Positions 8,275-60,495 of a stretch of 64,000 bases of DNA are shown one piece after another. Numbering within the stretch: the first letter of the stretch is position 1; every line of letters starts with the position of its first letter. A program made the position numbers and the translations under genes. Location of the stretch: NCBI GenBank assembly GCA_905214315.1, contig CAJMLN010000006.1, forward strand, positions 3,210 to 67,209. The letters are read 5' to 3'. The notes beneath the pieces were generated by a model. The model searched no databases and was not told where the DNA came from. It saw nothing but the letters and a program-made list of their open reading frames with translations. Source of the stretch: an uncultured bacterium. GTDB lineage: Bacteria; Bacillota; Clostridia; Christensenellales; QALW01.

Positions 8275-10669
<2,395 letters not shown>

Positions 10670-41753: not shown

Positions 41754-42876
41754 ATGAGAAATTTGATAGAGTTCGATTCATTCAAGCAGCGCGCGGCGCA
41801 GGCGGCCGCCAATATCAAATTGGCAGGTGAATCCCTTTAACCCGGATGGGATGAAGGAGAGGATCTTAGAGCTGAACGAGGAGATGGCCCAGCCGGAATT
41901 CTGGAACGATCCGGAAAAGGCGCAGGCCAAAAACCGCGAGCTTTCGCACCTGGAAAACAAGATAAAGGAGCTGGAGGGCTTTGAACGGCGCCTGGAGGAT
42001 ATCGGGGCGATGATCGAGTTGGGCGCAGAGATGGACGACGCCGATACCGCCGCCGAGGTGGAGCAGGAGCTTTCCTCTCTGGAGGAGGCCGTGGAGCGGC
42101 TGCAGCTGGAGACCATGCTTACCGGCGAGTATGACGCCAACAACGCGATTTTGACCCTGCACGCCGGCGCCGGCGGCACCGAGGCGCAGGACTGGACCGA
42201 TATGCTGTTCCGGATGTACCGCCGGTACTGCGAAAAGAGCGGCTACCAGGTGGAAATTTTGGATTATCTGGCCGGCGACGAGGCCGGGGTAAAGAGCGTG
42301 ACCTTCCGCGCCGTGGGAGAAAACGCCTATGGCTTCTTAAAGGCCGAAAAGGGCGTGCACCGTCTGGTGCGCATTTCGCCCTTTGACGCGAACAGCCGCA
42401 GGCATACGTCTTTTTCCGCACTGGAGGTCATGCCGGAAATTGAGGACGAGGGCGCGATTGTGATTCCGCCGGAGGATATCGAGATTGAAACGCGGCGTTC
42501 CACCGGCGCGGGCGGACAGCACATCAATAAAACCGAATCGGCCATCCGCATTATCCACAAGCCCACCGGCATTGTGGTGCAGTGCCAGCAGGAGCGTTCC
42601 CAGATACAGAACCGCGAAACGGCGATGAATATGCTGCGCTCTAAGCTGATTGAGCTGCGGGAGCGCGAGCGCGAGGAAAAAGAGCTGGAGCTGCGCGGCG
42701 ACATCAAAAAAATCGAATGGGGCAGCCAGATCCGTTCCTATGTGTTCCACCCGTACAATATGGTAAAGGATCACCGCACCAATGCGGAGACCTCGAACAT
42801 TCAGGCGGTAATGGACGGAGAACTGGAACCGTTCATCCGCGCCTATTTAGGCAAAAAGGACAGGGAACAGAGTTGA
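41754..42876 (+). CDS. prfB: peptide chain release factor 2, with programmed +1 frameshift (41754..41837 joined to 41839..42876)
   Basis: ORF0 reads MRNLIEFDSFKQRAAQAAANIKLAGESL and ends at CTT TAA C (41835-41841). The +1 frame continues NPDGMKERILELNEEMAQPEFWNDPEKAQ.., with SPF and GGQHINKTESA motifs. An AGGTGA Shine-Dalgarno-like element lies upstream of the slip site. TTG 41763 may be the true start, because the RBS abuts ATG 41754. Confidence 0.9.
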
Positions 42877-42893
42877 AAACAAAAAGTACGGCA

Positions 42894-44177
42894 ATGCAAA
42901 AGCTCTTCGGCGTTCTGATTGGATTGCTGCTGGTGTACGCCACGTTTTTTTCGGCGTTTTCCTCCATGCTCTACAGTCCGTCGTTCTATCTGAAGCAGGA
43001 TTCCCGCTATCAGATCACCGAAAATGCCGAGCTTAAAAATGCCGACGAATACCGCGGCATTTATACCGCGGTAATCCAGGCACTTAAGCACGGCGCCGAA
43101 ACCGTTCAGGATGCCGTGGTGGTAAAAAAGGGGTATGCCGAGGATTTTTCCGATACTGTACTTTCGGCCGGGAATTTTACGCTTACCAAGGAGTGGCAGC
43201 CGTTTTCGGCGGAGATGACGCTTGGGGAGAACTATTTTGAAACGGTGAACCGCCTGTATGAATACGGCTATGACCAGGCGCGCACGTTCAGCCTTAAGTT
43301 TTTCCATGCCTCCGCTGACGAGGGGACGGGGTTCCTGCTGGATAACCTTGCGCTGGTTCTGTTGGAGGAAACGGAAGAAACGCTTTTGGCGTCTTCGGAT
43401 TTGGAGACGGACGAGCTGACCGGCTGGCGCGTGTTTTCCCGCGGGGACGGTCTTTTGGAGCGAGCCGCCGGCGGCGTGGAAAATTCGGCGGGAGCGGTGC
43501 GGTTTACCCCGTATGCGCAGCAGAGCGCCCTGGCCTTTGCGGCGGGGGATGCGCTCGGCGGGCTTTGCCGGGCCGGGAAAGAAATACGCTGCCGCGTGAC
43601 CTTTTTTGCCCGTCTGCCGGAAGAGGCGGAGGTAGAGAGCGCCGAAGTGACGCTGCAGCTGGCCTCTGCCAAGGAGAGCACGGCGGCGGAGGCGGCCGGG
43701 GAAATCGGCGGCGAGCATCTGCCGATGTTCGGCCCGGAAGAGCTGGCCAGGCTGGAAAAAGGACACCGGCTGCTGCTTATCGGCAATATTCTGCGCTGGT
43801 TATCGCTGGGAATTGCTCTGGCGCTGGTCATTGCTGTTGTTGTAAAGGACCGCCGGCCGGGTCTGCGCGGGCTGGGGCTTGCAGCCCTTGTAACCGTTTT
43901 GCTGCTGTTTTTGCTGCTGGACGTCCTCGTGCTGGTGTGCATGAGCCGGTCCGCTCAGGTGCAGCAGGCGCTTTACGGTGTTCTGGGCAGCGCGCCGATG
44001 GACGGAGCGTTTTTGCCCTTTGTGCTGGGCGCCAATTATGCCAATGATTTTATAAAGGGATTTTTATCGTTTTTCAGCTTTATCATGTGCATTCCCGTAG
44101 CAGTTTCCTTCTTTCTGTTCCGGCTTTCGGTGGTAAGGGATGATTTTACAAACGATGATTATATGTATCAGGAATGA
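42894..44177 (+). CDS. polytopic membrane protein, DUF1461/TIGR01906 (Lit)-like ends with a large insertion
   Basis: N-terminal TM segment plus SPSFYLKQD..Y. Soluble insert of about 250 aa. Then FGPEELARLEKGHRLL followed by 3-4 TM segments. Start ambiguous (ATG 42894, or a TTG about 20 nt upstream). Confidence 0.55.
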   Translation: MQKLFGVLIGLLLVYATFFSAFSSMLYSPSFYLKQDSRYQITENAELKNADEYRGIYTAVIQALKHGAETVQDAVVVKKGYAEDFSDTVLSAGNFTLTKEWQPFSAEMTLGENYFETVNRLYEYGYDQARTFSLKFFHASADEGTGFLLDNLALVLLEETEETLLASSDLETDELTGWRVFSRGDGLLERAAGGVENSAGAVRFTPYAQQSALAFAAGDALGGLCRAGKEIRCRVTFFARLPEEAEVESAEVTLQLASAKESTAAEAAGEIGGEHLPMFGPEELARLEKGHRLLLIGNILRWLSLGIALALVIAVVVKDRRPGLRGLGLAALVTVLLLFLLLDVLVLVCMSRSAQVQQALYGVLGSAPMDGAFLPFVLGANYANDFIKGFLSFFSFIMCIPVAVSFFLFRLSVVRDDFTNDDYMYQE

Positions 44178-47965: not shown

Positions 47966-47970
47966 AAAAA

Positions 47971-47999
47971 AGACTATTGATTCAATAGTCTTTTTTTTT
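47971..47999 (+). terminator. intrinsic terminator ending the prfB..tatD gene string
   Basis: agactattg / caatagtct 9-bp stem followed by nine T. Confidence 0.8.
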
Positions 48000-48239
48000 G
48001 CTGCATGTTACGGCTCTTTTTTGCAAAAATAAAAAAGACATAAATTTTTTCTGTACGGCAGCGTCCGGTGCGGTAAAAGTAAAACGGAAAGGCGCCGCGG
48101 AATCGGGGTTTAACGCGGAAGCTCTGTTCTTTATGGAATTTTACAAGGAATAATTCCGAGGCACTATGGTGTATACAGAGTTAGAGAAATCAACTATAAT
48201 GGAACGGAAAGTGCCGATATATGGAAGGTGAAAGCAACC

Positions 48240-48521
48240 ATGGATCCGACGAAAATTAAATGTGAAGATTTAAACGGCGCATATAATGATCTGGCGAATC
48301 TGCTGGGAGTGGAGGCGGTACTCAAGCTGCATGCGTCCTATCGGGGGCAGCAGCTGACGTTTCCGGTACAGTTGTTCAGCAGAGAATATATGATATCACA
48401 AATTTTAAGGGAATATGACGGATCCAACGTAAAAAAGCTGGCTACGCAGTTTGGCTACAGTGAAAAATGGATCCGCAAAATCATAAAGGATCATAAAGAA
48501 AGTATAAAAAGCTCAAAATAA
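48240..48521 (+). CDS. Mor-like small DNA-binding protein (phage Mor transcription activator family pattern)
   Basis: ..AVLKLHASYRGQQLTFPVQLFSREYMISQILREYDGSNVKKLATQFGYSEKWIRKIIK matches the recalled Mor pattern (GG..IYIP ... R...I...F.G.N...LA..Y.LS...I..I). Lies in an AT-rich stretch. GTG 48228 is an alternative start. Confidence 0.5.
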   Translation: MDPTKIKCEDLNGAYNDLANLLGVEAVLKLHASYRGQQLTFPVQLFSREYMISQILREYDGSNVKKLATQFGYSEKWIRKIIKDHKESIKSSK

Positions 48522-48599
48522 GCTTTTTGGGAAAAATTTTTCGCACTGCGGCAAAGCTGCCGCGGCGAAGGAAAACGCCTTGAAGGAGAACATAAAAAC

Positions 48600-50339
48600 G
48601 TGAAACAAGAAAACTCCGCGGATAAAAAAAATACGGTCCGGACCAGGCTGGCGGAGCTTTGGCGGGATAAGCGCGGCTACTGGAAGCGATTTTTCATCGC
48701 CTTGCCGGTATTGCTGTGCCTGTGCTTTACAGTGCTGTTTTTCGGCCCGGTGGAGATTACGGCCTCCGGTGCCGACTCCCTGATCTTCGGGCTGGGCGAT
48801 ACGGCGTTGGCGGCGGGTCTTTTTGCGCTGGCGGTGCTGGCTGTTTCGTCTTTTGGGCTGGCCGCCCTGCGGGGGCGCGTGTTCAACTATGCGGCGTCGG
48901 TTATCTTTGCCGCCTCGCTGGGGGCGTATATTCAGGGAAATTTCCTCTCCGGAAAAATGGGCGCCCTTACGGGAGACGCGATTGCCTGGCAGGAATATAC
49001 CGGGGCAATGGCGGCGAACCTGGCCTTTTGGGCGATCCTTCTGCTGGCGGTGTTTTTTCTGCTGTATCTGAATAAAAAAATATGGACCAATGCGCTGCGG
49101 CTGATTTCCTGCCTTTTGGTGGTCATGCAGCTGGCGGGGCTGGGCAGTATTCTGGTAAAAGCCTCGCAGAAGGAGAGTGAAATAGCCGCAAGGGAAGTGT
49201 ATCTTTCCGATAAAGAGCTTACGGATTTTTCAAAAAACAAAAATGTTCTGGTGTTTTTGCTGGACAGGCTGGACTATGATTATATTGAGCAGGTGCTTGC
49301 TCAGGATCCGGATTTTTTTGACAGACTGGACGGCTTTACCAGCTATACCAACGCTACGGCCGAGTTTGCCCGGACGCGTCCCGGCGCAAGCTTTCTGCTC
49401 TCGGGCTATGAGGAGGGCGCCTATCGGATGCCGGCGGAGGAATATTTTGAAAAGCAGTGGACGGCCGGCGGGCGCAATCTTCTGGCGGATTTGAACGCGG
49501 CGGGGTATACGGTCAATCTCTATGGTGATACCTTGGGCATGATCGGCTCCGGGCAGGGATTTGAAGCGTATGTTTCCAATCTTTCCACGGCGGAGGAAAA
49601 GCTGAATTACGCGCGGCTGCTGAAAAATGTGCTGAATCTCTCCTTTTATCGTTATGCGCCCCAGGCGATGCGGCCGTTTTTCTGGTGTTATACCGATGAC
49701 GTAAACCGCGGGCTGTACCCGGAAAGCGGGCGGTATGAAATTGACGAGGCAAAATATGCGCCGCGCTTTCAGCAGCTGCAGCTGAAGGAGCGGAACTATT
49801 TTAAATTTTATCATTTTAACGGACCGCATCCGCCCTATACGCTGAATGAGGACGGGAGCCGTACGGCGGGCACGGAGACGGATGCCGTGCGGCAGACCAG
49901 GGGCTGCTTCCGTATTCTGTACGGGATTTTTGATCAGATGAAGGCGCAGGGAATTTATAAGGATTCCGCTATTTTAATTTTAGCCGACCACGGCAGCGCC
50001 GTTTCTGACCATGAGCCGGTGACCAAGGCGACGACGATCGGCCTGTTCTATAAGCCGGCGGGAGCGCAGGGACAGAAGCTGGCCCATTCCAATGCACCGG
50101 TTTCGCATAAAAACATTCCTGCTACGGTAATGAAGGCGGCCGGGAGTGAGTACGCGGCCTACGGCACTCCCCTGGACGAGGTAGCCGAGGATGCGCAGCT
50201 TGTGCGGCATTTTTATAAGAGCGTCATGGTAGGGGACCACGAGAGCGAGGTCTACGTTTATGATATCACGGGCGACGCCAACGTGTTTGAAAACTGGAGG
50301 GTGTCCCATACCTTTAAAGCAGAGTATTATTTTTATTGA
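48600..50339 (+). CDS. LtaS/EptA-like membrane-anchored sulfatase-superfamily phospho-group transferase
   Basis: About five N-terminal TM helices, then an extracytoplasmic alkaline-phosphatase/sulfatase-fold region: VLVFLLDRLDYDY, FARTRPGASFLLSG, ILILADHGS. GTG start. Confidence 0.72.
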   Translation: MKQENSADKKNTVRTRLAELWRDKRGYWKRFFIALPVLLCLCFTVLFFGPVEITASGADSLIFGLGDTALAAGLFALAVLAVSSFGLAALRGRVFNYAASVIFAASLGAYIQGNFLSGKMGALTGDAIAWQEYTGAMAANLAFWAILLLAVFFLLYLNKKIWTNALRLISCLLVVMQLAGLGSILVKASQKESEIAAREVYLSDKELTDFSKNKNVLVFLLDRLDYDYIEQVLAQDPDFFDRLDGFTSYTNATAEFARTRPGASFLLSGYEEGAYRMPAEEYFEKQWTAGGRNLLADLNAAGYTVNLYGDTLGMIGSGQGFEAYVSNLSTAEEKLNYARLLKNVLNLSFYRYAPQAMRPFFWCYTDDVNRGLYPESGRYEIDEAKYAPRFQQLQLKERNYFKFYHFNGPHPPYTLNEDGSRTAGTETDAVRQTRGCFRILYGIFDQMKAQGIYKDSAILILADHGSAVSDHEPVTKATTIGLFYKPAGAQGQKLAHSNAPVSHKNIPATVMKAAGSEYAAYGTPLDEVAEDAQLVRHFYKSVMVGDHESEVYVYDITGDANVFENWRVSHTFKAEYYFY

Positions 50340-50383
50340 GTCTGCCCTTTTTTAAAGGGGCGGCAGGCAGGAAAGGATGCAGA

Positions 50384-50698
50384 ATGAAAAAAGTTATAAA
50401 AACCGCGGCGGAATTCCTTTTGTTTTTTGCGCTGGGATGCGCGTTTTTCACGGCGACGGTAAGCGCGTATATCGATCCCTCGGCCATGACGTATATCGTG
50501 CAGGTGGTGGTGGGCATCGTAATCGCCGGTGCGGCGGCCTTTGGCTTTTATTTTCAGCGGCTGCGGCGCAAGCTGAAAAAGAAGGAGGAAGCTGTGCCTG
50601 AGGACTATGATTCGGCCGCGTTCTCCGAGGAGGAGATCGAGGACGACGGCGAGTTTGACGACAGCGATATCCCTGATGACGACGAAGATACCCAATAG
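50384..50698 (+). CDS. small two-TM protein with a strongly acidic C-terminal tail
   Basis: Start at ATG 50384, after aaaggatgcaga. MKKVIKTAAEFLLFFALGCAFF..AYIDPSAMTYIVQVVVGIVIAGAAAFGFYF, then EEIEDDGEFDDSDIPDDDEDTQ. Confidence 0.5.
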   Translation: MKKVIKTAAEFLLFFALGCAFFTATVSAYIDPSAMTYIVQVVVGIVIAGAAAFGFYFQRLRRKLKKKEEAVPEDYDSAAFSEEEIEDDGEFDDSDIPDDDEDTQ

Positions 50699-51191
50699 GA
50701 AAAAGCAGAAAAAACCGGAGCTTTTGTTTTTGCTGCTTGTTGCGGCGGCCCTGGCGGCCGCGGCAGCGGTATCGTTGTTTTTTGTACGCCCCGCGCGGGT
50801 GGACGGCGCTTCGATGGCCGGTACCCTGAACGCGGGAGACGTTATTTTGCTGGAGCAGTGCAGCTACCGCAGGGGAGAGCCCCAAAGGGGCGATATCGTT
50901 GCTTTTTTTAAAAAGGATGTAACCGGAGGCCTGCTTATAAAGCGGATTGTGGGGCTTCCGGGCGAGACGGTGGAAATTGCGGAGGGCGTGCTGTACGTCA
51001 ATGGTTCCGCCCTGCCGGGATATTCCGGCTTTTTGGAGGATATGCCGGCCTGCCGGATAGCACGGGACTGCTACTTTGTGATAGGGGATAATTTTAAAGA
51101 ATCGGTGGATTCCCGTGCTTGGCGGGAGCCGTTTGTCCGCCGGGAGGATATCCGCGGCCGGTATTGGCGCCGCATTGTCTCGTTTGGCTGA
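50676..51191 (+). CDS. lepB: signal peptidase I
   Basis: RVDGASMAGTLNAGD (catalytic Ser box), GDIVAF, LIKRIVGLPGETVE (Lys box), GDNFKESVDSR. The start is uncertain because there is no clear RBS. Overlaps the upstream small ORF. Confidence 0.82.
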   Translation: MTTKIPNRKKQKKPELLFLLLVAAALAAAAAVSLFFVRPARVDGASMAGTLNAGDVILLEQCSYRRGEPQRGDIVAFFKKDVTGGLLIKRIVGLPGETVEIAEGVLYVNGSALPGYSGFLEDMPACRIARDCYFVIGDNFKESVDSRAWREPFVRREDIRGRYWRRIVSFG

Positions 51192-51216
51192 AAATCTTTA
51201 TTTTTAGGAGCTTTTC

Positions 51217-53328
51217 ATGGGAATTATTGGGGAAATTCTCGGCACGCCGCTGGGATATGTTATGAAGCTGTGTTATGATCTGATTCACAACTACGGCTTT
51301 GCCATTATTGTGTTTACGCTTTTTACCAAGGTGATTTTGTTTCCGGTTTCAATGCTGGTGCAGAAGAACTCGGTAAAAATGATTAAAATGAAGCCGGAGC
51401 TGGACGCGCTGAAATACCAGTATATCGACGATAAGGACGGCCTTTTGGACGCGCAGGCCGCGCTGTACAAGCGGGAGAAATACAGCCCCTTTGCCGGGAC
51501 GATTCCGCTTTTAATTCAGCTGCCGCTGATCTTCGGCCTGATCGACGTGGTCTATCGGCCCTTAAAGCACATCCTGCACTTTCCGGCCGAGGCGATTTCT
51601 GCGTTTACCGCCAAGGCCTCGGAGCTTTTAGGCACGGCCGAGCTGGGCTCCTCACCGGAGCTGGTGGTCATGCGCTGCGCCAATGACCCGGCCAACCAGC
51701 AGGCGTTTCTGGATTTGCAAAACGGCGCGCTCTCCGGGCACGACGTAGGCGGTATGCTGGAGCGGATGCAGAGCGTGGATATGAACTTTTTCGGGTTCGA
51801 TCTTTCAGCGGTGCCCTCGGTGGCCGTGCTGAACCTGCTGTTTCTGATTCCGGTTCTGGCGGGCCTGAGCGCGCTGATTATGTGCGTGGTGCAGAATAAG
51901 ATCAACGTGCTGCAGATCGAGCAGAGCCCCCTTGCCCAATGGGGCATGACGCTGTTTATGATTGCTTTCTCCGTGTATTTTGCGTTCCTGGTGCCGGCGG
52001 GCGTGGGCGTATACTGGATTTTCGGCAATCTGTTTTCCATACCGGTTATGTATTTGGTAAACCTGATTTATAACCCCAAGGAATATATTGATTATAAAAC
52101 GTTAAATAAGCTCAAGGAAAAGGCGAAGGCCGAGCGGGAGCAGAAGCGCGCGGACAATAAGCTTTCGCGCCGGTATTATAAGGAGCTTTGCGCCGATCAC
52201 AATTTAAGCAAAATGCGCCTGATGTTCTATTCGGAGCAGAGCGGCTTTTACAAGTATTTTGAAAGCATTATCGACGCGCTTTTGAAGAACAGCGACGAGA
52301 CGATCTATTATGTCACCAGCGATCCTAAGGACGCGGTTTTTCAGAAGAACAACCCCAGAATCAAGCCGTACTATGTGGCGGGCAACCATTTGATCGCGCT
52401 GATGATGAAGCTGGAGTGCCGCATCGTGGTGATGACTACGCCGGATTTGGAAAAATATCATATCAAGCGCTCCAAGGTGCGCAGGAATATTGAGTATATT
52501 TACGTGGACCACGGCTGTACCAGCCTCAATCTGACGTACCGTCCCGGTGCACTGGATTATTTTGACACTATCTTTGCGGTAAGCCGGAATCAGGGCATTG
52601 AGGTGCGGGAAATCGAGCAGCTGCGCGGCACGCGGAAAAAACGGATTGTAAAATGCGGCTACGGGCTGATCGATAACATGACCCGAGCCTATGAAAAGCT
52701 GGAAAAAACACAGAACGACCGCCCCGCGATATTGATTGCGCCCTCCTGGCAGTATGACAATATTCTGGACAGCTGTCTGGATAACCTGCTGGAAAGCCTG
52801 CTGAGCTGCGACCGGTATCGGGTTATCGTGCGTCCGCATCCGCAGTATATCCGGCGCTTTCCGCTGCAGATGGAAAGTATTTTGGAAAAGTACCGCGGCC
52901 GCTTTAATGAGAATTTTAAAATAGAGACCGACTTTTCCTCCAATGTTACCGTTTATACGGCGGACATGGTGATTACCGACTGGTCGGCCATCGCCTTTGA
53001 ATTCAGCTTTACCACCTTAAAGCCCACGCTGTTTGTCAATACGCAGATGAAGGTGGTCAATAAGGATTATAAAAAGATCAAGATGAAGCCCTTTGATATC
53101 ACCGCGCGCAATATTGTGGGAAAATCCGTGGAAAAGGAAGAGACGGCCGGTATTGCCGCCATAGCGGACGAGCTGCTTGCGCATCAGGCCGACTATACGC
53201 AGAGCATTGCCCGGCTGAAGGAAAGCTATTTTTATAACCTGGGTCATAGCGGCGAGGCGGGAGCGCAATATATCATCGACCGCCTTTGCACCGGCCCTGC
53301 ATCGGCGGAGGCGGCCCAGGAGGAGTAG
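51217..53328 (+). CDS. fusion protein: YidC/Oxa1 membrane insertase (aa ~1-300) + TagF-type CDP-glycerol glycerophosphotransferase domain (aa ~340-703)
   Basis: One uninterrupted 703-codon ORF with RBS taggagc. YidC motifs: GFAIIVFTLFTKVILFPVSMLVQKNSVKMIKMKPELDAL, PLLIQLPLIFGL, PAGVGVYWIFGNLFSIP. TagF/TagB-like motifs: ILIAPSWQ, VIVRPHPQ, MVITDWSAIAFEFSFTTLKPTLF. Confidence 0.8.
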   Translation: MGIIGEILGTPLGYVMKLCYDLIHNYGFAIIVFTLFTKVILFPVSMLVQKNSVKMIKMKPELDALKYQYIDDKDGLLDAQAALYKREKYSPFAGTIPLLIQLPLIFGLIDVVYRPLKHILHFPAEAISAFTAKASELLGTAELGSSPELVVMRCANDPANQQAFLDLQNGALSGHDVGGMLERMQSVDMNFFGFDLSAVPSVAVLNLLFLIPVLAGLSALIMCVVQNKINVLQIEQSPLAQWGMTLFMIAFSVYFAFLVPAGVGVYWIFGNLFSIPVMYLVNLIYNPKEYIDYKTLNKLKEKAKAEREQKRADNKLSRRYYKELCADHNLSKMRLMFYSEQSGFYKYFESIIDALLKNSDETIYYVTSDPKDAVFQKNNPRIKPYYVAGNHLIALMMKLECRIVVMTTPDLEKYHIKRSKVRRNIEYIYVDHGCTSLNLTYRPGALDYFDTIFAVSRNQGIEVREIEQLRGTRKKRIVKCGYGLIDNMTRAYEKLEKTQNDRPAILIAPSWQYDNILDSCLDNLLESLLSCDRYRVIVRPHPQYIRRFPLQMESILEKYRGRFNENFKIETDFSSNVTVYTADMVITDWSAIAFEFSFTTLKPTLFVNTQMKVVNKDYKKIKMKPFDITARNIVGKSVEKEETAGIAAIADELLAHQADYTQSIARLKESYFYNLGHSGEAGAQYIIDRLCTGPASAEAAQEE

Positions 53329-53457
53329 GTGTTCAAAAACAGAAAAGAACAGCGCCAGAATGAACGACGCTTTCTTTTTGTTCCCAAAAATCCGTAAAGC
53401 TTCGGTTTTGCGTTCACATACAAGCAAGAAAAATAAAAAATGAACGGGGAGGAATCC

Positions 53458-54453
53458 ATGATGAAACGCATCAGAAACCTTATTTCTTTTGTACTTATTT
53501 CAGTGCTTTTCCTTTGCGCAGCCTTTACCGGCTGCGGCGGAGAGAAAAAGGAAAAAGTAGTCATTTACACCAGCGCCGAGGATTTCCGGGTGGAAGACCT
53601 GCGGGAGCGGCTCAACGCACAGTTTCCGCAGTATGAAATCAATATCGAATATATGTCCACCGGTAATCATGCGGCCAAGCTTTTGGCCGAAGGCGTTAAT
53701 ACCGAATGCGATATTACCCATGACCTGGAATATCCGTATCTGGACAAGCTGGCCGAGGCGGAGGGACTGGCCGATCTTTCGGAATATGATATGTCGGTAT
53801 ACGCACCCGATGCGGCGGTAAGCAAGTATTATATTCCTGAGGTGCGCAACGGCGGCGCGGTGATTGTGGACGCGGCCGCGCTTACGGAAAAGGGGCTGCC
53901 GGTGCCCGGCAGCTATCAGGATTTGCTGAAGCCGGAGTATAAGGGACTGGTAATTATGCCTAACCCCAAATCCTCGGGTACCGGATATATGTTTGTAAAG
54001 GCTCTGGCGGTTTCTATGGGCGAGGAAGAGGCTCTGGCTTATTTTGATCAGCTGAATGAAAACATTATTGAATATACCTCCTCCGGCTCCGGCCCGATCA
54101 ACCGGCTGATTCAGAAGGAAGCGGCTATCGGTTTGGGAATGACCAGCCAGGCGGTAAACGCCAATCAGGAGGGCGGTAATTTTGAAATTCTGTTCTTTGA
54201 AGAGGGCTCGCCGTATTCTATGTACGGGCAGGCCATGATCCGCGGCAAGGAAACGCGCGAGGCGGTAAAGACCGTGTTTGATTTTATGGTCAATACCTAT
54301 AACCGCGAGGCAAACAACAAGTTCTATCCCGAACAGATTTTCGCCGACGGCCCCGGCAAGGTGGAAAATTATCCCCAGAATATTCAGTATGCCGATATGG
54401 GCGATACCTCTCCCGAGAGCAAGGACGCGCTTTTGGCAAAGTGGAAATATTAG
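53458..54453 (+). CDS. ABC importer substrate-binding lipoprotein (Fe3+/polyamine/2-aminoethylphosphonate-type SBP cluster)
   Basis: Start at ATG 53458, after ggggaggaatcc. Lipobox AAFTGCGG. VVIYTSAED...PNPKSSGTGYMF... pattern. Confidence 0.78.
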   Translation: MMKRIRNLISFVLISVLFLCAAFTGCGGEKKEKVVIYTSAEDFRVEDLRERLNAQFPQYEINIEYMSTGNHAAKLLAEGVNTECDITHDLEYPYLDKLAEAEGLADLSEYDMSVYAPDAAVSKYYIPEVRNGGAVIVDAAALTEKGLPVPGSYQDLLKPEYKGLVIMPNPKSSGTGYMFVKALAVSMGEEEALAYFDQLNENIIEYTSSGSGPINRLIQKEAAIGLGMTSQAVNANQEGGNFEILFFEEGSPYSMYGQAMIRGKETREAVKTVFDFMVNTYNREANNKFYPEQIFADGPGKVENYPQNIQYADMGDTSPESKDALLAKWKY

Positions 54454-54463
54454 GAGCAAAAGC

Positions 54464-55228
54464 ATGGAAAACGGCGATATCAAGCTGAAGGTCACCGGCC
54501 TTACAAAAAATTACGGGGAAAAGTGCGTGCTGGATCAGGTTTCCTTTTCCGTGTACGACGGCGAATTTCTTTCAGTGCTGGGCCCTTCAGGGTGCGGCAA
54601 AACCACGCTTCTGCGGATTCTGATCGGCCTGCTGGAGGCCGACGCCGGCTCGATCGTTAAGGACGGCGCGGAGATCACCCATGCCGCGGCCTCTGCCCGG
54701 GGGATGGGCATTGTCTTCCAGAATTACGCGCTGTTTGAAAACATGACGGTTCTGGGCAACGTGGAGTATGCCTTGAAAATCAAAAAGGATACAAAAAAGC
54801 AGGCGCGCGCTCTGGCGCAGGCGATGCTGCAAAGAATGGGGCTGGAGGAGCATGCGGGCAAAAAGCCGCACGAGCTCTCCGGCGGGCAGCAGCAGCGCGT
54901 GGCCATTGCCAGAACGCTGGTGCTGAAGCCCGACATCATTCTGTTTGACGAGCCGATGTCGGCGCTGGACGTTGCCACACGGCTGATGCTCCGGCAGGAG
55001 CTGAAGGAGATCCAGCGTGAGTTCGGCACCACGATGATCTATATTACCCATGATCAGGAGGAGGCCTTTGCGCTTTCGGACCGGATTATGGTCATGGATA
55101 AGGCGCGGCTTGTGCAGATCGATACCCCTGAGCATATCATCGATATGCCGGCGGACGACTATGTGCGCAGCTTTGTCAACGACAATCTGCGCATCAAGAT
55201 CGATTCGCTGGTAAAATACGTGAGGTGA
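54464..55228 (+). CDS. ABC transporter ATP-binding protein
   Basis: GPSGCGKTT (Walker A), LSGGQQQRVAIAR (signature), ILFDEP (Walker B), ITHDQ (H-loop). Confidence 0.92.
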   Translation: MENGDIKLKVTGLTKNYGEKCVLDQVSFSVYDGEFLSVLGPSGCGKTTLLRILIGLLEADAGSIVKDGAEITHAAASARGMGIVFQNYALFENMTVLGNVEYALKIKKDTKKQARALAQAMLQRMGLEEHAGKKPHELSGGQQQRVAIARTLVLKPDIILFDEPMSALDVATRLMLRQELKEIQREFGTTMIYITHDQEEAFALSDRIMVMDKARLVQIDTPEHIIDMPADDYVRSFVNDNLRIKIDSLVKYVR

Positions 55229-55233
55229 GGGGC

Positions 55234-56892
55234 ATGAAGCGATTCGTATCTGCCGCCCGGGGAGAGAAGGCCGGCGCGGCGGTGAGCAAGATCATTTTTG
55301 CTTCGGTGTTCGCGGCGTTCGTGCTGCTGCCGCTGGTGCGTATGCTGCTTTATATTGACGGCCGCAGTCTGCACGAGGTCTTTTCCGCGCCGTATTTTAA
55401 GGAGGCCGTCGTCAATTCTCTGACCTCAGGCGTAACGGCGTCGTTGATTTCCCTGCTGCTTGCGTACTTTTTAGCGGTATGTCTCTCCCGGGTGGATATC
55501 CGCCTTAAGAGCCTGTTCAGCGTGATTTTTATTCTGCCGATGCTGATTCCCTCCATTTCCCACGGCATGGGTCTGCTGCTGATTTTAGGCAACAACGGCC
55601 TGGTTACCCGGCTGCTGCATTTGGATTTCAGTATTTACGGCTTCTGGGGAATTGTGGCGGGTTCGGTGATGTATACGTTCCCCGTGGCGTTTCTGATGTT
55701 CAGCGATATTTTAAAGTATGAGGATTATTCGCCCTATGAGGCGGCAAAGGTGCTGGGGGTTTCCGCTCCGCGGCGCTTTGCCTCCATTACGCTGCCCTAT
55801 CTGCGGCGGCCGCTGATCTCCATTGTATTTACGGTGTTTACCATGATTATTACCGATTACGGCGTGCCGCTGATTATCGGCGGAAAGTTCAAAACGCTGT
55901 CGTCGGTGATGTATCAGGAAGCCATCGGTCGGCTGAATTTTGATAACGGTGCCGTGCTGGGCGCGGTACTGCTGGTTCCCGCGGTGATTGCGTTTGTATT
56001 TGACCTGCTCAACCGCGATAAGGGCAATATGAGCTTTGTTACCCGCCCCTTTGTGCTCTCTAAAAGCCGCGGGGCAAGGGCGGCGGCATATGGCTTCTGC
56101 ACGCTGGTGTCGCTTTTAGTCATGATTCCGCTGATCTGCTTTGTGCTGATCGGCTTTGCCAAACGGTATCCTACCGATCTGTCCTTTACGCTGAAAAACA
56201 TACAAAAGACCTTTACGATGGACGCGGGAAAATATCTGGCCAATTCGGTGATTATTGCGCTTTGGGTATCGGTGCTGGGCATGGGAATCTCCTTTTTTGC
56301 CGCCTACCTGACGGCCCGCATGAAATCCGGCCTTTCCCGGCTGCTGCACCTGATCTGCATTACCACCGCGGCGATTCCCGGCATCGTGCTGGGCCTTTCC
56401 TATGCCATCGTGTTTAATCAGAGCTTTATCTATAATACGCTGATCATCCTGGTGGTGGTAAACCTGGTGCATTTCATTGCCTCGCCGTATATGATGATGT
56501 ATAATTCCTTTTCCAAGCTCAATGAAAATCTGGAGGCCGTGGGCAAAACCATGGGCGTCGGTCGGCTGCGGATGCTGAGGGACGTCTTTCTGCCCCAGAG
56601 CCTTTCCACAGTGCTGGAGGTTGGCAGCTATTTCTTTGTCAACTGTATGATGACGATTTCCGCCGTGTCCTTTTTGGGCAGCTCTTCCGCCGTTAAACCG
56701 GTTGCGCTGATGATCAATCAGTTTGAAGCGCAGATGCAGCTGGAATGCGCGGCGGTGGTGTCGCTGATGATTCTTCTGGTCAACATGCTGCTGAAGCTTT
56801 TGATTTTTGCAGTAAAAAAACAGATGGCGCGGCGCGGCCTGAAAAAAGCGCAGAAGGCGAGGAGTACATATGCTTACAAAAAAACAGTTTGA
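55234..56892 (+). CDS. ABC transporter permease, duplicated (two fused BPD-type transmembrane domains)
   Basis: About 12 TM segments. Two EAA-like loops (YEAAKVLGVSAPRRFASITLPYLRRP and LEAVGKTMGVGRLRMLRDVFLPQS). ATG 55234 follows gaggtgagggg. Confidence 0.85.
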   Translation: MKRFVSAARGEKAGAAVSKIIFASVFAAFVLLPLVRMLLYIDGRSLHEVFSAPYFKEAVVNSLTSGVTASLISLLLAYFLAVCLSRVDIRLKSLFSVIFILPMLIPSISHGMGLLLILGNNGLVTRLLHLDFSIYGFWGIVAGSVMYTFPVAFLMFSDILKYEDYSPYEAAKVLGVSAPRRFASITLPYLRRPLISIVFTVFTMIITDYGVPLIIGGKFKTLSSVMYQEAIGRLNFDNGAVLGAVLLVPAVIAFVFDLLNRDKGNMSFVTRPFVLSKSRGARAAAYGFCTLVSLLVMIPLICFVLIGFAKRYPTDLSFTLKNIQKTFTMDAGKYLANSVIIALWVSVLGMGISFFAAYLTARMKSGLSRLLHLICITTAAIPGIVLGLSYAIVFNQSFIYNTLIILVVVNLVHFIASPYMMMYNSFSKLNENLEAVGKTMGVGRLRMLRDVFLPQSLSTVLEVGSYFFVNCMMTISAVSFLGSSSAVKPVALMINQFEAQMQLECAAVVSLMILLVNMLLKLLIFAVKKQMARRGLKKAQKARSTYAYKKTV

Positions 56893-57757
56893 TATTTTGG
56901 TATATCTTTCGGAAAACAGCTCCGGGCAGACGCAGCGGAGCATTGCCGCCGGCACAGGGCTTTCGGTGGGTACGGTGAATAAAACCATGGCCGAGCTTTC
57001 CGCCGCGGGCCTTGCGGGGGAAAACGCCATTGCCCCGGCGGGCCTGGCGGCGCTGGAGCCGTACCGGGTGCGCCGCGCGGTGTTTATTGCGGCGGGCTTC
57101 GGCTCCCGGCTGGCGCCCATTACCTTTAATACGCCCAAGCCCCTTGTGCGCGTAAAGGGACGGCGGATTATCGATTCCCTGCTGGACGCGGTTCTGGCGG
57201 CGGGAATTGAGGAAATTTACGTGGTGAGGGGATATTTGTGGGAGCAGTTCGACCAGCTGCTGTATCAGTATCCGATGATTAAATTTATCCAGAACCCCCT
57301 GTATAACGAGGCCAATAATATTTCCTCGGTATACTGCGCGCGGGACGTTATCCGGCAGGCCTATGTGCTGGAGGCGGATCTTCTGCTGTATAACCCCGCC
57401 CTGATTAAAAAATACCAGTATTCCAGCAATTATCTGGGCGTGCCGGTGGAGAAAACCGAGGATTGGTGCTTTGAAACCGAAAACGGCCGGATCACCCGGC
57501 TGCAGATCGGCGGGACGAATTGCTCGCACATGTTCGGCATTTCCTATTGGACGCAGGAGGACGGCGAAAAGCTGAGCCGGGACGTTGTAAGCGTGTATAA
57601 CGCCCCCGGCGGAAAGGAACGGTACTGGGATCAGGTGGCGCTGGAATATTACCGCGCCAACTATGAGATTTCGGTGCGGGAATGCAGTTTTCGGGATATT
57701 ATTGAGATCGATACCTTCAATGAACTCAAGCAGCTGGATCCGACCTACGATATGTAA
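56870..57757 (+). CDS. winged-helix (MarR-like) domain fused to a LicC-type nucleotidyl(cytidylyl)transferase
   Basis: N-terminus: LTKKQFDILVYLSENSSGQTQRSIAAGTGLSVGTVNKTMAEL. NTP-transferase signature: AAGFGSRLAPITFNTPKPLV. The remainder is co-linear by recall with S. pneumoniae LicC (VRGYL.EQF..L...Y....I.N..Y.E.N.I.S......). The start overlaps the permease 3' end by 23 nt. Confidence 0.78.
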   Translation: MLTKKQFDILVYLSENSSGQTQRSIAAGTGLSVGTVNKTMAELSAAGLAGENAIAPAGLAALEPYRVRRAVFIAAGFGSRLAPITFNTPKPLVRVKGRRIIDSLLDAVLAAGIEEIYVVRGYLWEQFDQLLYQYPMIKFIQNPLYNEANNISSVYCARDVIRQAYVLEADLLLYNPALIKKYQYSSNYLGVPVEKTEDWCFETENGRITRLQIGGTNCSHMFGISYWTQEDGEKLSRDVVSVYNAPGGKERYWDQVALEYYRANYEISVRECSFRDIIEIDTFNELKQLDPTYDM

Positions 57758-58040: not shown

Positions 58041-58138
58041 GACCGGGTTTCAGGGCAAGAGGGAAAAAATTTTTTCTTTGCTGAAACATTTTGGCCTTTT
58101 GCAGCGTTTTAAGGGTGAAAGGGAAAGGAAAAACGGCT

Positions 58139-58621
58139 ATGAAGAACTATACCGATGAAGAGTTTAAACGAATCATGGACGACTGGGGCGATATGGTTCT
58201 GCGGATCTGCTTTGTGCGGCTGCGGAACTTTGCCGACGCACAGGATGCGTTCCAGGAGGTCTTTTTAAAGCTGTACCGCGCAAAAAAAACGCCGGAGCCG
58301 GAATTTCTGAAGCCCTGGCTGATTAAAACGGCCTGCAATACCTGTGCTTCGCAGCTGCGCAGCCGCCGGATTTTCCTTCCCCTTTCAGAGGATATCCCCG
58401 CGGCGGAGGCGTTTTATGACCGTACGGTTTTATCCGCTGTACTTTCCCTTTCCCAAACAGACCGCACGCTGGTGTATCTGTTTTATTACGAAAATTTAAA
58501 AACCGCGGAAATCGCCCGGATAACCGGTATAAAGGACGCGACCGTGCGTACGCGTCTGCGCCGGGCCAGGCTGACCTTAAAGGAAATTTTGCAGGAGGAT
58601 TTGTATGAGGAATCATTTTAA
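58139..58621 (+). CDS. ECF-type RNA polymerase sigma-70 family factor
   Basis: Region 2 (DAQDAFQEVFLKLY...PWLIKTACN) and region 4 (LKTAEIARITGIKDATVRTRLRRAR). Confidence 0.85.
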   Translation: MKNYTDEEFKRIMDDWGDMVLRICFVRLRNFADAQDAFQEVFLKLYRAKKTPEPEFLKPWLIKTACNTCASQLRSRRIFLPLSEDIPAAEAFYDRTVLSAVLSLSQTDRTLVYLFYYENLKTAEIARITGIKDATVRTRLRRARLTLKEILQEDLYEESF

Positions 58622-59924
58622 CGGCATCAGGGCCGATGAAGCATTAAAGCAGAAAACGCTGGAGAAAGCGAAGCAGAAGAGCCGAAAAGGACGGCTGCTG
58701 CCCTCTCTTTCCGCCGCGGCGGCCGTATTGGCGGCAGTGATCGGCCTTGCGGCGCTGGCGCCGTCGTGGATAAAAGGTTCCAACGCGGATAACGCTGTGC
58801 CGGAGAATCCGTCCCATAGCGTGGACGCGGAAAGCGCAGGCCGGGAAGAAATGAGCGGAATGCTGGGGGAAGCGCCGGCGGGGGCTCCGGAGGCGTCTAT
58901 AGAAACTGCATGGCCGGAGAGTCAGCCGCAAACCCGGATGACTGCCGCGGCCCTTGACGACAACGCCTGCTTTCAGCAATGGCTGGAACGAAAAAATGCT
59001 TCGGCGTTTGACCTTTACGGCTTTAAGGCCGACCGGCGCATTGCGGTTAAGGTGACGGGAGAAACCGGCGCGGCGTTGCCCTTTGCGGCCGTTACCTTGA
59101 CGGACGGACAGGGAAATATTCTGTATGACGCCGTTACCGACATCCGGGGAAACGCCTATCTGTTCTATGATTTTTATAATGTGTCGGGCACGCCCGCATC
59201 CGTGTGCGCTGCTTTTGCCGGCCGGAGGGCAGAGGCGGCGCTGACGCAGGGACAGACGGAGGTTTCGCTTTCCCTGCCGGTGCCGCCCGAGACGCCGCAG
59301 GCGCTGGATATTCTGTTTATGATCGATACTACCGGCTCCATGGGCGATGAGCTGGAGTATTTAAAGGAAGAAACCGCGCAGCTGCTCACGGAGCTTACGC
59401 TTGCCTACAGCACGCAGGTGAGTATTAACTTTTACCGGGACGAGGGCGATGCATACGTGGTAAAAAGCAATCCATTTACGGCGGACATCGGTCAAGCCGC
59501 AGCGCAGCTCAGGCAGGAAAGCGTGGACGGCGGAGGAGATTATCCCGAGGCGGTGGAAAAAGCGCTGGAAAATGGCATTTCCGGGCATCAGTGGCGCGGA
59601 AATTCCGTAAAAATTGCATTTTTAGTGCTGGACGCCCCGGCGCATAAGAGCGAGGGCGTGTCACAGAGTTTGTTTCAGAGCATTCAGGCGGCAGCCCGTC
59701 AGGGAATCCGTCTGATACCGGTGATGGCCAGCGGCGCGGATGAAGCCACGGAGATTCTTTGCCGCCAGCTTGCCTTGTTTACCGGCGGCCGGTTTGTATT
59801 TATTACCGACCACAGCGGGATAGGCAACGCGCACCGGGAACCCATTACTACGGTGGCTTATGAGGTAAAGCCGCTGATTACGATTTTAAAGGAGGTTATT
59901 TATGCGTATACAAAAATGGATTAA
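58605..59924 (+). CDS. putative anti-sigma factor: cytoplasmic N-terminus, one TM segment, extracytoplasmic VWA (MIDAS) domain
   Basis: 17-nt overlap with the sigma gene. TM segment LLPSLSAAAAVLAAVIGLAALAP. VWA motif LDILFMIDTTGSMGDELEYLK ... VLDAPAH ... ASGADE. Confidence 0.68.
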   Translation: MRNHFNGIRADEALKQKTLEKAKQKSRKGRLLPSLSAAAAVLAAVIGLAALAPSWIKGSNADNAVPENPSHSVDAESAGREEMSGMLGEAPAGAPEASIETAWPESQPQTRMTAAALDDNACFQQWLERKNASAFDLYGFKADRRIAVKVTGETGAALPFAAVTLTDGQGNILYDAVTDIRGNAYLFYDFYNVSGTPASVCAAFAGRRAEAALTQGQTEVSLSLPVPPETPQALDILFMIDTTGSMGDELEYLKEETAQLLTELTLAYSTQVSINFYRDEGDAYVVKSNPFTADIGQAAAQLRQESVDGGGDYPEAVEKALENGISGHQWRGNSVKIAFLVLDAPAHKSEGVSQSLFQSIQAAARQGIRLIPVMASGADEATEILCRQLALFTGGRFVFITDHSGIGNAHREPITTVAYEVKPLITILKEVIYAYTKMD

Positions 59925-60495
59925 AGCCACTGCGGTGGCTGTTCTTGCGGTAAGCATGACGGGATCGGCCTTCTGGCTGATTCATGCTGCGGGGCAGGAG
60001 GTGCCGCTCTCTGCCGGAGCGGGGAACTGGGACGGAGCTTCTGTCGTCATAAAGAGCGAGCCGTCTTCGCCGGCAGGGATTTCGTTGGCGGTGAGTATGG
60101 AAAACGCATTTTCGCAGGAGCAGGAAACGCCGCCGCTCTGCGGCGTGTCCGAGGATGCAGAGGAGTTGTTCGTTTCCTTTTCCGTGCTGGAAAGCTCAGC
60201 GGAGGGGTGCCGGCTGCAGGTTGTTAACAACAGCGCATCCCACATGCTTTCCACGGGCTACGCTTTTTCCCTGGAGGTGAAAAAGGGCGGGCAGTATGTA
60301 CCGGCGGATTACCATACGCCGCCCTGCTGGCCGGAGATCGCCTGCATGGTCGAGCCCGGCGGCACGCTGGTGCTGCGGTTTGACTGGCATGCTTCCTACG
60401 GCAGCCTGGCGCCAGGAGAATATCGGATTGTAACCGAATACTTTTCCGAAACTTCGGCCTTTACCCAAAAAACCCCGTTTACTGTAATAGAATAA
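59902..60495 (+). CDS. secreted Ig-like (Big_14-type) domain protein
   Basis: Signal/anchor AVAVLAVSMTGSAFWLI. LQVVNNSASHMLSTGYAFSLEVKKGGQYVP...VEPGGTLVLRFDW...LAPGEYRIVTEYF. 23-nt overlap with the upstream gene. Confidence 0.55.
   Translation: MRIQKWIKATAVAVLAVSMTGSAFWLIHAAGQEVPLSAGAGNWDGASVVIKSEPSSPAGISLAVSMENAFSQEQETPPLCGVSEDAEELFVSFSVLESSAEGCRLQVVNNSASHMLSTGYAFSLEVKKGGQYVPADYHTPPCWPEIACMVEPGGTLVLRFDWHASYGSLAPGEYRIVTEYFSETSAFTQKTPFTVIE

Follow-up and report, generated by a model that had tools for sequence, protein, structure and literature searches.

In O-antigen glucosylation by GtrA/B/C, in the ArnC-ArnE/F-ArnT system and in the glycosylation of teichoic acids by CsbB-GtcA-YfhO, the envelope is modified by one and the same logic, namely that a donor is activated inside the cell, a lipid is carried across the membrane and delivery takes place at the outside. 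By analogy, a similar logic may be proposed for the system described here, which was found in a 64,000-nucleotide stretch of DNA (contig CAJMLN010000006.1 of assembly GCA_905214315.1; hereafter the window) from an uncultured bacterium of the Christensenellales, and which centers on a gene at positions 51217-53328 whose product joins a domain of the YidC/Oxa1 family of membrane protein insertases to a domain resembling the glycerophosphotransferase TagF. Both this system and those of the GtrABC type often reside in polysaccharide loci. They have, however, no homologous part, as a TagF-like domain of the GT-B fold stands where the others use a GT2 enzyme, YidC and a small hairpin protein stand where the others use GtrA, GtcA or ArnEF, and the cargo would be a phospho- or phosphono-head group instead of a sugar.

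Other described systems resemble individual components. With the Lic-1 pathway of Streptococcus pneumoniae and Haemophilus influenzae (LicB transporter, LicA kinase, LicC, LicD), the fusion system has the nucleotidyltransferase (NTase) in common, and sister loci add a BCCT transporter and a choline/ethanolamine kinase. In contrast to Lic-1, a TagF-like domain takes the place of LicD, the window carries an ATP-binding cassette (ABC) importer instead of the kinase, and YidC, an alkaline-phosphatase-type enzyme, the small protein and a signal peptidase are additional. TagF, TagB and TarL as well as Cps1B, Cps3D and Bcs3 share with the fusion the GT-B fold and the AP(S/T)W, HP and (T/S)D(W/Y)S motifs, and two histidines are invariant in the fusion; its domain is, however, very distant from TagF, TagB and TarL and tied to a YidC, and neither a supply of CDP-glycerol or CDP-ribitol (CDP, cytidine diphosphate) nor export genes for teichoic acid or capsule recur beside it. 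LtaS, EptA, PptA and BcsG, all members of the alkaline-phosphatase superfamily, pass a phospho-head group from a phospholipid to an acceptor at the outer face of the membrane. The partner enzyme encoded upstream of the fusion has the same combination of a transmembrane (TM) bundle and an extracytoplasmic alkaline-phosphatase-type domain with a Thr and a D-H metal motif as LtaS, EptA (MCR-1), PptA, BcsG and PbgA, but differs from them in its genetic link to a YidC paralogue and a cytoplasmic CDP-X transferase, a link of which no example is known among those proteins. Lastly, a comparable cytidylyl activation of a small phosphorus compound for surface decoration is found in the Pnt pathways with PntC and in the O-methyl phosphoramidate (MeOPN) pathway of Campylobacter (Cj1415-Cj1418) (PMC6697681; PMC11800397). 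As in these routes, unfused relatives of the TagF-like domain stand directly after either a fusion of phosphoenolpyruvate (PEP) mutase and cytidylyltransferase (Ppm-CTase) with phosphonopyruvate decarboxylase (Ppd) and an iron-containing alcohol dehydrogenase (Fe-ADH), or a protein resembling pyruvate phosphate dikinase (PPDK) with a Cj1417-like protein and an NTase.

Work on the nucleotidyl activation of phosphonates (PMC6697681) and an inventory of phosphonate clusters (PMC8942020) name LicD-like or unidentified transferases and mention neither YidC nor TagF-like proteins. The sole link to the literature that we found is the report of 'multiple sulfatases' next to the 'Group 4 phosphonolipids' clusters of Selenomonas (PMC8942020). 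A full-text search for YidC in combination with TagF, with glycerophosphotransferase or with phosphonate and PEP mutase, the coverage of which excludes subscription journals, returned no relevant publication. The kind of system proposed here, i.e., extracytoplasmic modification via a membrane-bound intermediate, is known; its YidC paralogue component is unprecedented.

A YidC domain fused to a TagF-like domain

The frame 51217-53328 is confirmed as a genuine fusion of a YidC with a divergent TagF-like GT-B domain. A sequence-only reading of the window had described it as a single open reading frame (ORF) of 703 uninterrupted codons behind a good ribosome-binding site, had quoted peptide strings typical of YidC, of a linker and of TagF/TagB (among them ILIAPSWQ and VIVRPHPQ) and had proposed both domains for the one protein, to be checked against PF02096 and PF04464, and all of this holds: the frame opens with ATG, AGGAG lies 9 nt upstream, every quoted string is present and both domains score above their thresholds. 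In Pfam, 60KD_IMP (PF02096) covers amino acids (aa) 26-282 with 115.4 bits (cut-off 35), and the NCBIfam model TIGR03592 (yidC_oxa1_cterm) reaches 106.9 bits (cut-off 84.3). The match to Glyphos_transf (PF04464) is weak, with 33.4 bits over aa 333-627 (profile positions 14-308 of 367) against a gathering cut-off of 22.1, and no NCBIfam model matched the C-terminal half.

Among the database homologues, the best 120 uniformly have a length of about 700 aa and match 98-100% of the query with 62-93% identity; both Pfam domains are present in nearly all of them. In a scan of 185,579 genomes, one per GTDB species, at least 453 species-level genomes were found to encode a relative of the fusion, a number that is a lower bound since the scan relied on two peptide patterns only. 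Because the junction is thus kept as one ORF in hundreds of independent assemblies, a missed stop codon or frameshift, which the sequence-only reading had wanted to see excluded, can be dismissed. The carriers in the genome scan are without exception metagenome-assembled genomes (MAGs) and belong to uncultured Clostridia of the gut or rumen, the samples having come from humans, mice, rabbits, horses, deer and reactors; inside the Clostridia, the distribution is patchy. In GCA_054814445.1, the fusion is located on a contig of 2.0 Mb. Where the homologues are named, PGAP and IMG call them 'membrane protein insertase YidC'. The suspicion that the architecture had gone undescribed is therefore borne out for the searchable literature, but the architecture is not rare, as thousands of database entries carry it under the name of YidC.

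An AlphaFold2 (AF2) model built from an alignment of 42 homologues (mean predicted local distance difference test score, pLDDT, 84.2) shows, in this order, an N-terminal amphipathic helix, TM1, a cytoplasmic C1 hairpin, TM2, an insertion, TM3-TM5, a linker helix and the GT-B domain. The helices of the YidC part comprise residues 26-40, 42-68/73-86 (the hairpin), 91-113, 207-229, 238-258 and 261-284, so that both the five-helix core of YidC and the C1 coiled-coil hairpin between TM1 and TM2 are present. When the model was compared with the PDB by Foldseek, TagF (3L7L) ranked first with an E-value of 1.6e-8; next came two capsule polymerases of the TagF-like kind (8QOY, 8A0C), and the N-terminal half matched YidC of Escherichia coli (6AL2) and of Bacillus halodurans (3WO7) with a TM-score of 0.68 on the target. 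Both folds expected for the protein are thus recovered, and the argument that the fusion is topologically consistent proves sound, since the YidC core ends on the cytoplasmic side and the model places the linker helix and the GT-B domain behind the core TM helices. The insertion, with the conserved residues Y113, P115, H118 and L149 in its region, occurs neither in canonical YidCs nor in the unfused YidCs of the related systems described below, where the 60KD_IMP match spans about 200 aa instead of the 257 aa in the fusion. It would be well placed for contact with the alkaline-phosphatase-type domain outside.

In the hydrophilic groove of E. coli YidC, R366 on TM1 supplies the positive charge, and in an alignment block free of gaps the fusion has K38 at this position. 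This lysine is invariant in 42 fused homologues, and a lysine also occupies the position in all seven unfused system-linked YidCs that were aligned; the charge is hence still positive, the residue being Lys instead of the canonical Arg (R366 in E. coli, R72 in B. halodurans). Whether as an old shared trait or by convergence, the exchange would in either case point to a specialized groove. In the TagF-like domain, H432, D450 and H541 do not vary among the relatives, whether fused or unfused. A profile of this domain aligns APSW, RPHP (H541) and TDWS with APTF, HP and SDYS of TarL (8VA1). In TagF itself, we take H444 and H584 to be the catalytic, diphosphate-binding pair, in a protein with the motifs PTW, HP and DYSS. 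At E<=10, the profile reached TarL and not TagF, which leaves H432 as a candidate for the counterpart of H444, and a phmmer search with the C-terminal half alone gave no match among PDB chains.

A conserved gene system in Clostridia and Proteobacteria

The fusion is one part of a conserved system of four to eight genes, which is visible in the window at 48600-57757 (Table 1) and which had been overlooked in the sequence-only reading. In 83 loci with a fused gene (three from exact look-ups and 80 from the species-genome scan), a sulfatase-family gene lies upstream in 75, the small protein is encoded in 78, a signal peptidase of family S26 in 65 and a LicC-like NTase in 59.

Table 1. Genes of the fusion system in the window, parts of the fusion protein and examples of the small protein from unfused loci
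Feature	Position	Strand	Evidence
Sulfatase/alkaline-phosphatase-superfamily membrane enzyme, 579 aa	48600..50339	+	Pfam Sulfatase 38 bits; AF2 pLDDT 89.3
Small conserved membrane protein, about 104 aa from MKKVIK...	50384..50698	+	Cross-locus conservation
Signal peptidase I (S26)	50607..51191	+	Pfam Peptidase_S26 117.9 bits; TIGR02227 110 bits
YidC-TagF-like fusion protein, 703 aa	51217..53328	+	Pfam, NCBIfam, AF2, Foldseek
YidC core of the fusion	aa 1-290 (about 51217-52086)	+	AF2, Pfam
Helical extracytoplasmic insertion between TM2 and TM3, ~85 residues	aa ~115-200 (51559-51816)	+	AF2
Long linker helix	aa 293-325	+	AF2
TagF-like GT-B domain, two Rossmann folds	aa ~333-690 (about 52213-53286)	+	AF2, Foldseek
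ABC importer, solute-binding protein, PhnS2-like	53440..54453	+	TIGR03261 192.9 bits, below equivalog cut-off 392.75
ABC importer, ATPase, PhnT2-like	54461..55228	+	Pfam, NCBIfam; below equivalog cut-off
ABC importer, fused double permease, PhnU2-like	55225..56892	+	TIGR03262 367 bits, below cut-off 593
Winged helix-turn-helix (HTH) + LicC-like cytidylyltransferase, 295 aa	56870..57757	+	Pfam HTH_24, NTP_transferase, NTP_transf_3
Small-protein examples, unfused loci (L084-L155)	L125:4033-4248; L119:3233-3586		

According to its AF2 model, the sulfatase-family enzyme has a helical TM bundle at its N-terminus (aa ~6-192) and a domain of the catalytic type outside the cytoplasm. Its top full-length Foldseek matches are PbgA/YejM (6XLP, 6V8Q), followed by LtaS (2W5Q, 4UOO); at the sequence level, a single-sequence search of the PDB gave no match to LtaS, EptA, PptA, BcsG or PbgA, and no NCBIfam model applies. 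D222, T259 (in ARTxP), H405, H410 and D463-H464 are invariant, and both T259 as the putative nucleophile (by motif position only) and D463-H464, which would include a metal ligand, stand where such residues are expected. The signal peptidase, which probably starts at the ATG at 50676, keeps the Ser of GASM, the Lys of KRIVGLPGE and the GDN..S.DSR box. Downstream of the fusion, the models matched by the importer bear the name 'putative 2-aminoethylphosphonate' transporter; its ATPase is listed with a TTG start at 54278, which overlaps the gene of the solute-binding protein, and the real start is probably near 54461. The LicC-like part of the last protein (aa 62-290) matches best, among PDB entries, the pneumococcal CTP:phosphocholine cytidylyltransferase LicC (1JYK, E 7e-26) and second the fusion of PntC with 2-aminoethylphosphonate (AEP) transaminase (AEPT) of Treponema denticola (6PD1), and it is presumed to make a CDP- or CMP-activated donor (CMP, cytidine monophosphate). 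Neither a LicA-type kinase nor a LicB choline transporter is encoded in the window, which has the ABC importer instead, and a second yidC is absent from its 64 kb.

In other fused loci, the supply genes are interchangeable, and all modules end in a cytidylyltransferase. An ABC importer accompanies the fusion in about 28 of the 83 loci, in 25-28 of them as a module with the HTH-NTase, and this module is inverted and on the other side but still adjacent in L003, L005, L023-L028 and others, which argues for a functional and not merely inherited linkage. In 20-21 loci that lack the importer, a choline/ethanolamine kinase, a shorter LicC-like NTase and a BCCT transporter directly follow the fusion. 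Kinase and ABC importer are mutually exclusive among the fused loci, which fits the rule that choline is phosphorylated after uptake and that the ABC system would import a compound already carrying phosphorus. One fused locus has an NTase-kinase fusion, and in four (L001, L010, L014, L017) the NTase is fused to a threonine/serine-phosphate decarboxylase of the CobD type (6OUX, E 8e-43; TIGR01140). The latter could have been taken for PntC-AEPT, which is ruled out since the C-terminal half matches 6OUX and TIGR01140 and not the class-V AEPT of 6PD1. In Campylobacter jejuni, Cj1436, of the Ser/Thr-phosphate-decarboxylase class, makes ethanolamine phosphate from serine phosphate (PMC11800397). 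Locus L001 of a Christensenellales relative additionally carries, at 6175-8895, short ORFs of the TPP_enzyme_C and CTP_transf_like types next to a transposase of the IS30 type (HTH_38), with an IS66 element downstream. These ORFs look like remnants of a Ppm-cytidylyltransferase/Ppd phosphonate cassette, of the kind that is intact in L125, which the NTase-decarboxylase fusion would have replaced. LicD-family transferases do not occur among the annotated recurrent neighbor clusters of the fused loci.

A search with the C-terminal domain among 1.84 billion representative proteins (E<=1e-3) returned 1,999 relatives in three groups, namely fusions of ~700 aa, much larger proteins, and stand-alone proteins of ~380 aa with 30-38% identity. 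By Pfam, the larger proteins have the order YidC-TagF-Sulfatase (P0122, P0131, P0136), Sulfatase-YidC-TagF (P0128, P0161) or S26-YidC-TagF (P0124). Since the sulfatase domain is attached in two different orders, these fusions must be independent events, and the enzyme is physically tied to the YidC-TagF pair. Three of the stand-alone proteins (P0182, P0199, P0403) are named 'YidC/Oxa1 family membrane protein insertase' by JGI/IMG despite having no YidC domain, a name apparently carried over from fused proteins; the same cluster appears at NCBI as 'CDP-glycerol glycerophosphotransferase family protein' (Holosporales MAG).

A metagenome scan with one stand-alone relative yielded 69 loci, mostly marine or from sediment, of which 60 are unfused. 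An NTase of ~261 aa abuts the TagF-like gene in 27 of these 60, often with overlapping stop and start codons. Where at least 1.5 kb of downstream sequence is available (37 unfused loci), a separate YidC-family gene follows downstream on the same strand in 19, and between the two genes there is usually one for a sulfatase-like membrane protein (sulfatase domain confirmed in L134). The unfused YidCs have 363-482 aa and Pfam scores of 94-109 bits. Two supply sets recur. The first, consisting of a PEP mutase (TIGR02320, 399 bits, cut-off 319) fused to a cytidylyltransferase, Ppd and Fe-ADH, is a phosphonate cassette. The second consists of a PPDK_N/PEP-utilizer protein of ~1,000 aa (NF004508/PRK05849, 'hypothetical', 1008 bits), an amidotransferase-fold protein of ~210 aa and the NTase; the best NCBIfam model for the ~210-aa protein is the gamma-glutamyl-CDP-amidate hydrolase of the Cj1417 family, with 131 bits below the cut-off of 250. 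We take Cj1418 of Campylobacter to correspond to the PPDK-like protein. Cj1418, Cj1417 and Cj1416 constitute a route to CDP-phosphoramidate (PMC11800397), and the second set appears, as far as domain content can tell, to be the domain set of that route. It is found in marine Proteobacteria including a Pelagibacterales MAG (L154:10269-15822, L155:10273-15826, and ~3600-9100 of L119, L134, L141 and L147), which suggests that phosphoramidate-type surface decoration may exist well outside Campylobacter.

The small protein connects the fused and the unfused loci. Its Clostridial form starts with MKK and continues with a signal-peptide-like hydrophobic segment H1 (ending in VSA in the window), A-x-A, AYIDPSAMTY(I/M)IQ and a second TM helix, after which come a basic stretch and then a tail of acidic residues; one Clostridial clade adds a conserved C-terminal coiled coil. 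Unfused operons begin with an ORF of 64-100 aa of like design, in which A-x-A precedes Y-(I/L)-D-P-(G/S), and which was found in 34 of the 69 metagenome-scan loci. Tyr and Asp of this motif never vary, and Ala(-1) and Pro hardly do. A profile search gave at least 6,318 database members, all 'hypothetical' and none with a Pfam domain, from gut Clostridia, Pelagibacterales, Halioglobus, Ca. Ruthia, Rhodospirillales and others; the family deserves a definition of its own. When three small proteins were used as independent seeds, each locus was found to encode a YidC-family protein, a TagF-like protein and either a sulfatase-type or a ~587-aa membrane protein, and the loci from Halioglobus and Pelagibacterales lie inside surface-polysaccharide clusters rich in glycosyltransferases and epimerases. 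In Proteobacteria, the unfused systems retain both the small protein and YidC but lack a dedicated S26 peptidase, from which it follows that the pairing of YidC with the small protein belongs to the core and that the peptidase is accessory.

One could imagine that the small ORF is an arrest or leader peptide for yidC like MifM. This was rejected, as the conservation across phyla concerns the N-terminal and TM regions and not the C-terminus; the conserved C-terminal coiled coil of one clade and the large distance from the YidC gene in unfused operons also oppose it. Both the small protein and the dedicated signal peptidase belong integrally to the system, most likely as a client of YidC or a partner subunit.

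A proposed relay of phospho-head groups and its alternatives

From our point of view, there is an even chance that the fusion is the core of a conserved envelope-modification system in which a CDP- or CMP-activated head group is loaded onto a lipid, carried across the membrane by YidC and delivered by the enzyme outside. The cargo that travels from cytoplasm to cell surface would probably be small phosphate-containing head groups of the choline, ethanolamine or phosphonate type. The relay could proceed as follows: (i) the head-group precursor would be imported, in the window by the PhnS2T2U2-like ABC importer; (ii) the LicC-like HTH-cytidylyltransferase would convert it into the CMP/CDP-activated donor; (iii) the cytoplasmic TagF-like GT-B domain would transfer the phospho-head group to the hydroxyl of a membrane lipid with release of CMP, diacylglycerol being chemically the simplest acceptor and a phosphatidyl-X lipid the product; (iv) the YidC domain would move the lipid head group to the outer leaflet via its hydrophilic groove, with Lys38 in place of Arg; and (v) the PbgA/LtaS/EptA-like enzyme would take over the head group via Thr259 and pass it to a surface polymer or protein, whereby the lipid would be regenerated. 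Since the window encodes no kinase, the precursor likely already carries phosphorus. AEP, phosphocholine and phosphoethanolamine are all candidates, given that the nearest named relatives of the importer are AEP transporters, that a kinase is lacking and that the NTase is LicC-like.

This relay is the most economical scheme that draws on established chemistry for every part. Enzymes of the TagF family transfer a phospho-alcohol from a CDP-alcohol to a hydroxyl and thereby set CMP free. E. coli YidC has been demonstrated to scramble glycerophospholipids in vitro (PMC11047089), which provides a biochemical precedent for the flipping step that we infer. For phosphocholine transferases of the PptA type, the donor route is an open question, nor is a case known in which Lic-1 and PptA occur together (PMC10434233). 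In the fusion system, the donor is probably a compound other than CDP-glycerol and the protein probably not a teichoic-acid polymerase, a single head-group transfer being likelier. The sequence-only reading had considered the insertase fold as a platform or groove for a lipid-linked polymer synthase; the comparative evidence favors the platform or groove for a lipid-linked substrate, and speaks against the glycerophosphotransferase or polymer synthase, as tagD-type and teichoic-acid genes do not recur beside the fusion and the conserved partner is a cytidylyltransferase of the LicC type. One could go further and speculate, more doubtfully, that the YidC branch with Lys in its groove is not a general insertase but a dedicated flippase or scramblase for a lipid-linked phospho-head group, serving a modular relay of small hairpin protein, cytidylyltransferase, TagF-like transferase, YidC paralogue and outside enzyme by which bacteria from gut Clostridia to marine SAR11 would decorate their surfaces with phosphocholine, phosphoethanolamine, phosphonates or phosphoramidate; we regard this as possible and tend to doubt it.

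Several points weigh against the relay. Its lipid intermediate is one that we purely infer, and the relay alone does not account for a conserved procoat-like small protein and a dedicated signal peptidase. Over its full length, the partner enzyme is structurally most similar to PbgA/YejM, for which no transferase activity is known. For the PhnS2/T2/U2 and Cj1417 families, the scores stay below the curated equivalog cut-offs, which leaves several candidate head groups, and about 21 of the 83 loci have no NTase inside the fetched flanks, many of which are short. Furthermore, since the YidC domain of the fusion resembles its unfused counterparts in the related systems only distantly (19-24 bits by phmmer), a common descent of the fused and unfused association may be considered but is not proven.

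A different view is that YidC serves as a dedicated insertase for the system's own proteins, above all the small hairpin protein, which the signal peptidase would then cleave after A-x-A; the TagF-like domain would be fused for the sake of co-localization and would act on a lipid-linked glycan as pneumococcal LicD does, with no flipping involved. This view, which we consider unlikely but deserving of serious attention, draws on the hallmarks of a YidC-only substrate in the small protein, i.e., two hydrophobic segments and a very short loop with the invariant Asp, preceded by A-x-A right before the invariant Tyr, on the S26 peptidase, which by its residues is catalytically intact and present in 65 of the 83 loci and in P0124 even fused to YidC, and on the retention of the C1 hairpin and of a positive groove residue by the YidC domain. 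A permanent fusion or strict co-encoding with enzymes on both sides of the membrane is, however, hard to rationalize for a one-time role in biogenesis, the unfused Proteobacterial systems retain the YidC paralogue without a dedicated S26, and it is left unexplained how a cytoplasmic head group reaches the extracytoplasmic alkaline-phosphatase-type enzyme.

It can also be imagined that the carrier is a protein, in that the TagF-like domain phospho-modifies a Ser, Thr or Tyr in the Y-I-D-P-S/G loop of the small protein, YidC translocates the loop and the signal peptidase trims it, whereupon the outside enzyme either passes the group on or leaves a surface phospho-form, comparable to PptA acting on pilin. 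It is the sole model that gives each conserved part a job, the invariant motif is located exactly at the translocated loop, and enzymes of the PptA type modify Ser in short D-x-S motifs of pilins (PMC10434233). Nevertheless, we judge it rather improbable, as action of the TagF family on a protein hydroxyl is without precedent, the loop is short, YidC is not known to translocate modified loops, and the residues following D-P vary by clade (SAMTY versus GSGSA).

Slightly less credible still is a CDP-glycerol glycerophosphotransferase of the TagF/TagB type that makes a teichoic-acid-like poly(glycerol phosphate) and uses the YidC fold as its membrane anchor. The above-threshold Glyphos_transf match, TagF as the top structural match, a profile that reaches TarL and a small CTP_transf_like ORF near the fusion in one locus (L001) speak for it. 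However, glycerol-3-phosphate cytidylyltransferase (tagD-type), tarIJ, tagO/tagA and tagGH are not among the recurrent neighbors within ±10 kb in the 83 fused and the 69 metagenome-scan loci, the conserved NTase is of the LicC type, the supply genes are those for choline, ethanolamine phosphate, phosphonate and phosphoramidate, and the subfamily has no NCBIfam model and reaches only 33 bits in Pfam; the L001 fragment lies beside a TPP-enzyme fragment and an insertion-sequence element and looks like a Ppm-CTase/Ppd remnant. That the protein is a housekeeping YidC with a passenger domain, or two genes joined by an assembly or annotation artefact, is hardly to be believed in spite of its PGAP and IMG name, given that the junction recurs as one ORF in hundreds of independent assemblies and in at least 453 species, that a conserved accessory cluster sits in chromosomal surroundings that vary by genome, that the rpmH-rnpA-yidC-jag context is absent from the window and not recurrent in the 83 loci, and that the protein is patchy in Clostridia and the Proteobacterial system YidC (339-480 aa, in polysaccharide loci) is clearly an extra paralogue.

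Adjacent genes and biological significance

Directly upstream of the system, a 97-aa protein of the Mor family, which resembles the middle-operon regulator of phage Mu, is encoded at 48228-48521 (+), alone between tatD and the sulfatase-family gene with gaps at 47966-48227 and 48522-48599; it may regulate the cluster or be left over from a prophage. Just downstream, at 58091-60495 (+), an extracytoplasmic-function-type sigma-70 factor is followed by a 439-aa protein with a von Willebrand factor A domain and a 197-aa Big_14 (bacterial Ig-like) protein, which together may form a sigma/anti-sigma envelope module. Further upstream, prfB for release factor 2 (41754-42876, +) has its programmed +1 frameshift at CTT-TAA-C (41835-41841) instead of the usual CTT-TGA-C, with a Shine-Dalgarno-like AGGTG element just upstream, and the listed ORF 41827..42876 represents the post-shift frame only. 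Between prfB and tsaD lies an ORF of 486 aa (42717-44177, +) without a match in Pfam or NCBIfam. Its listed start reaches back about 160 nt into prfB, and the real one probably lies further downstream.

In textbooks, proteins of the YidC/Oxa1 family figure as protein insertases. Lipid scrambling by members of this family is known from in vitro work only (PMC11047089), and a YidC paralogue that is tied to head-group transferases on both sides of the membrane, and in Clostridia even fused, offers a natural system for a genetic test of such a lipid role. If the YidC branch with Lys in its groove is indeed a dedicated conduit for lipid-linked head groups, it would be the first instance in nature of a member of the Oxa1 superfamily that is genetically hard-wired to act on lipids, and the relay would provide the missing donor-supply route for phospho-form transferases at the outside, which is open for those of the PptA type (PMC10434233). 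The present analysis further assigns a context to an unannotated family of small proteins with more than 6,000 members and exposes annotation errors such as stand-alone transferases labeled 'YidC'. The system is abundant in uncultured Clostridia of the human and animal gut and in marine Proteobacteria including Pelagibacterales, and a decoration of their surfaces with phosphocholine, phosphoethanolamine or phosphonate would bear on host mimicry, immune recognition, phage attachment and phosphorus cycling.

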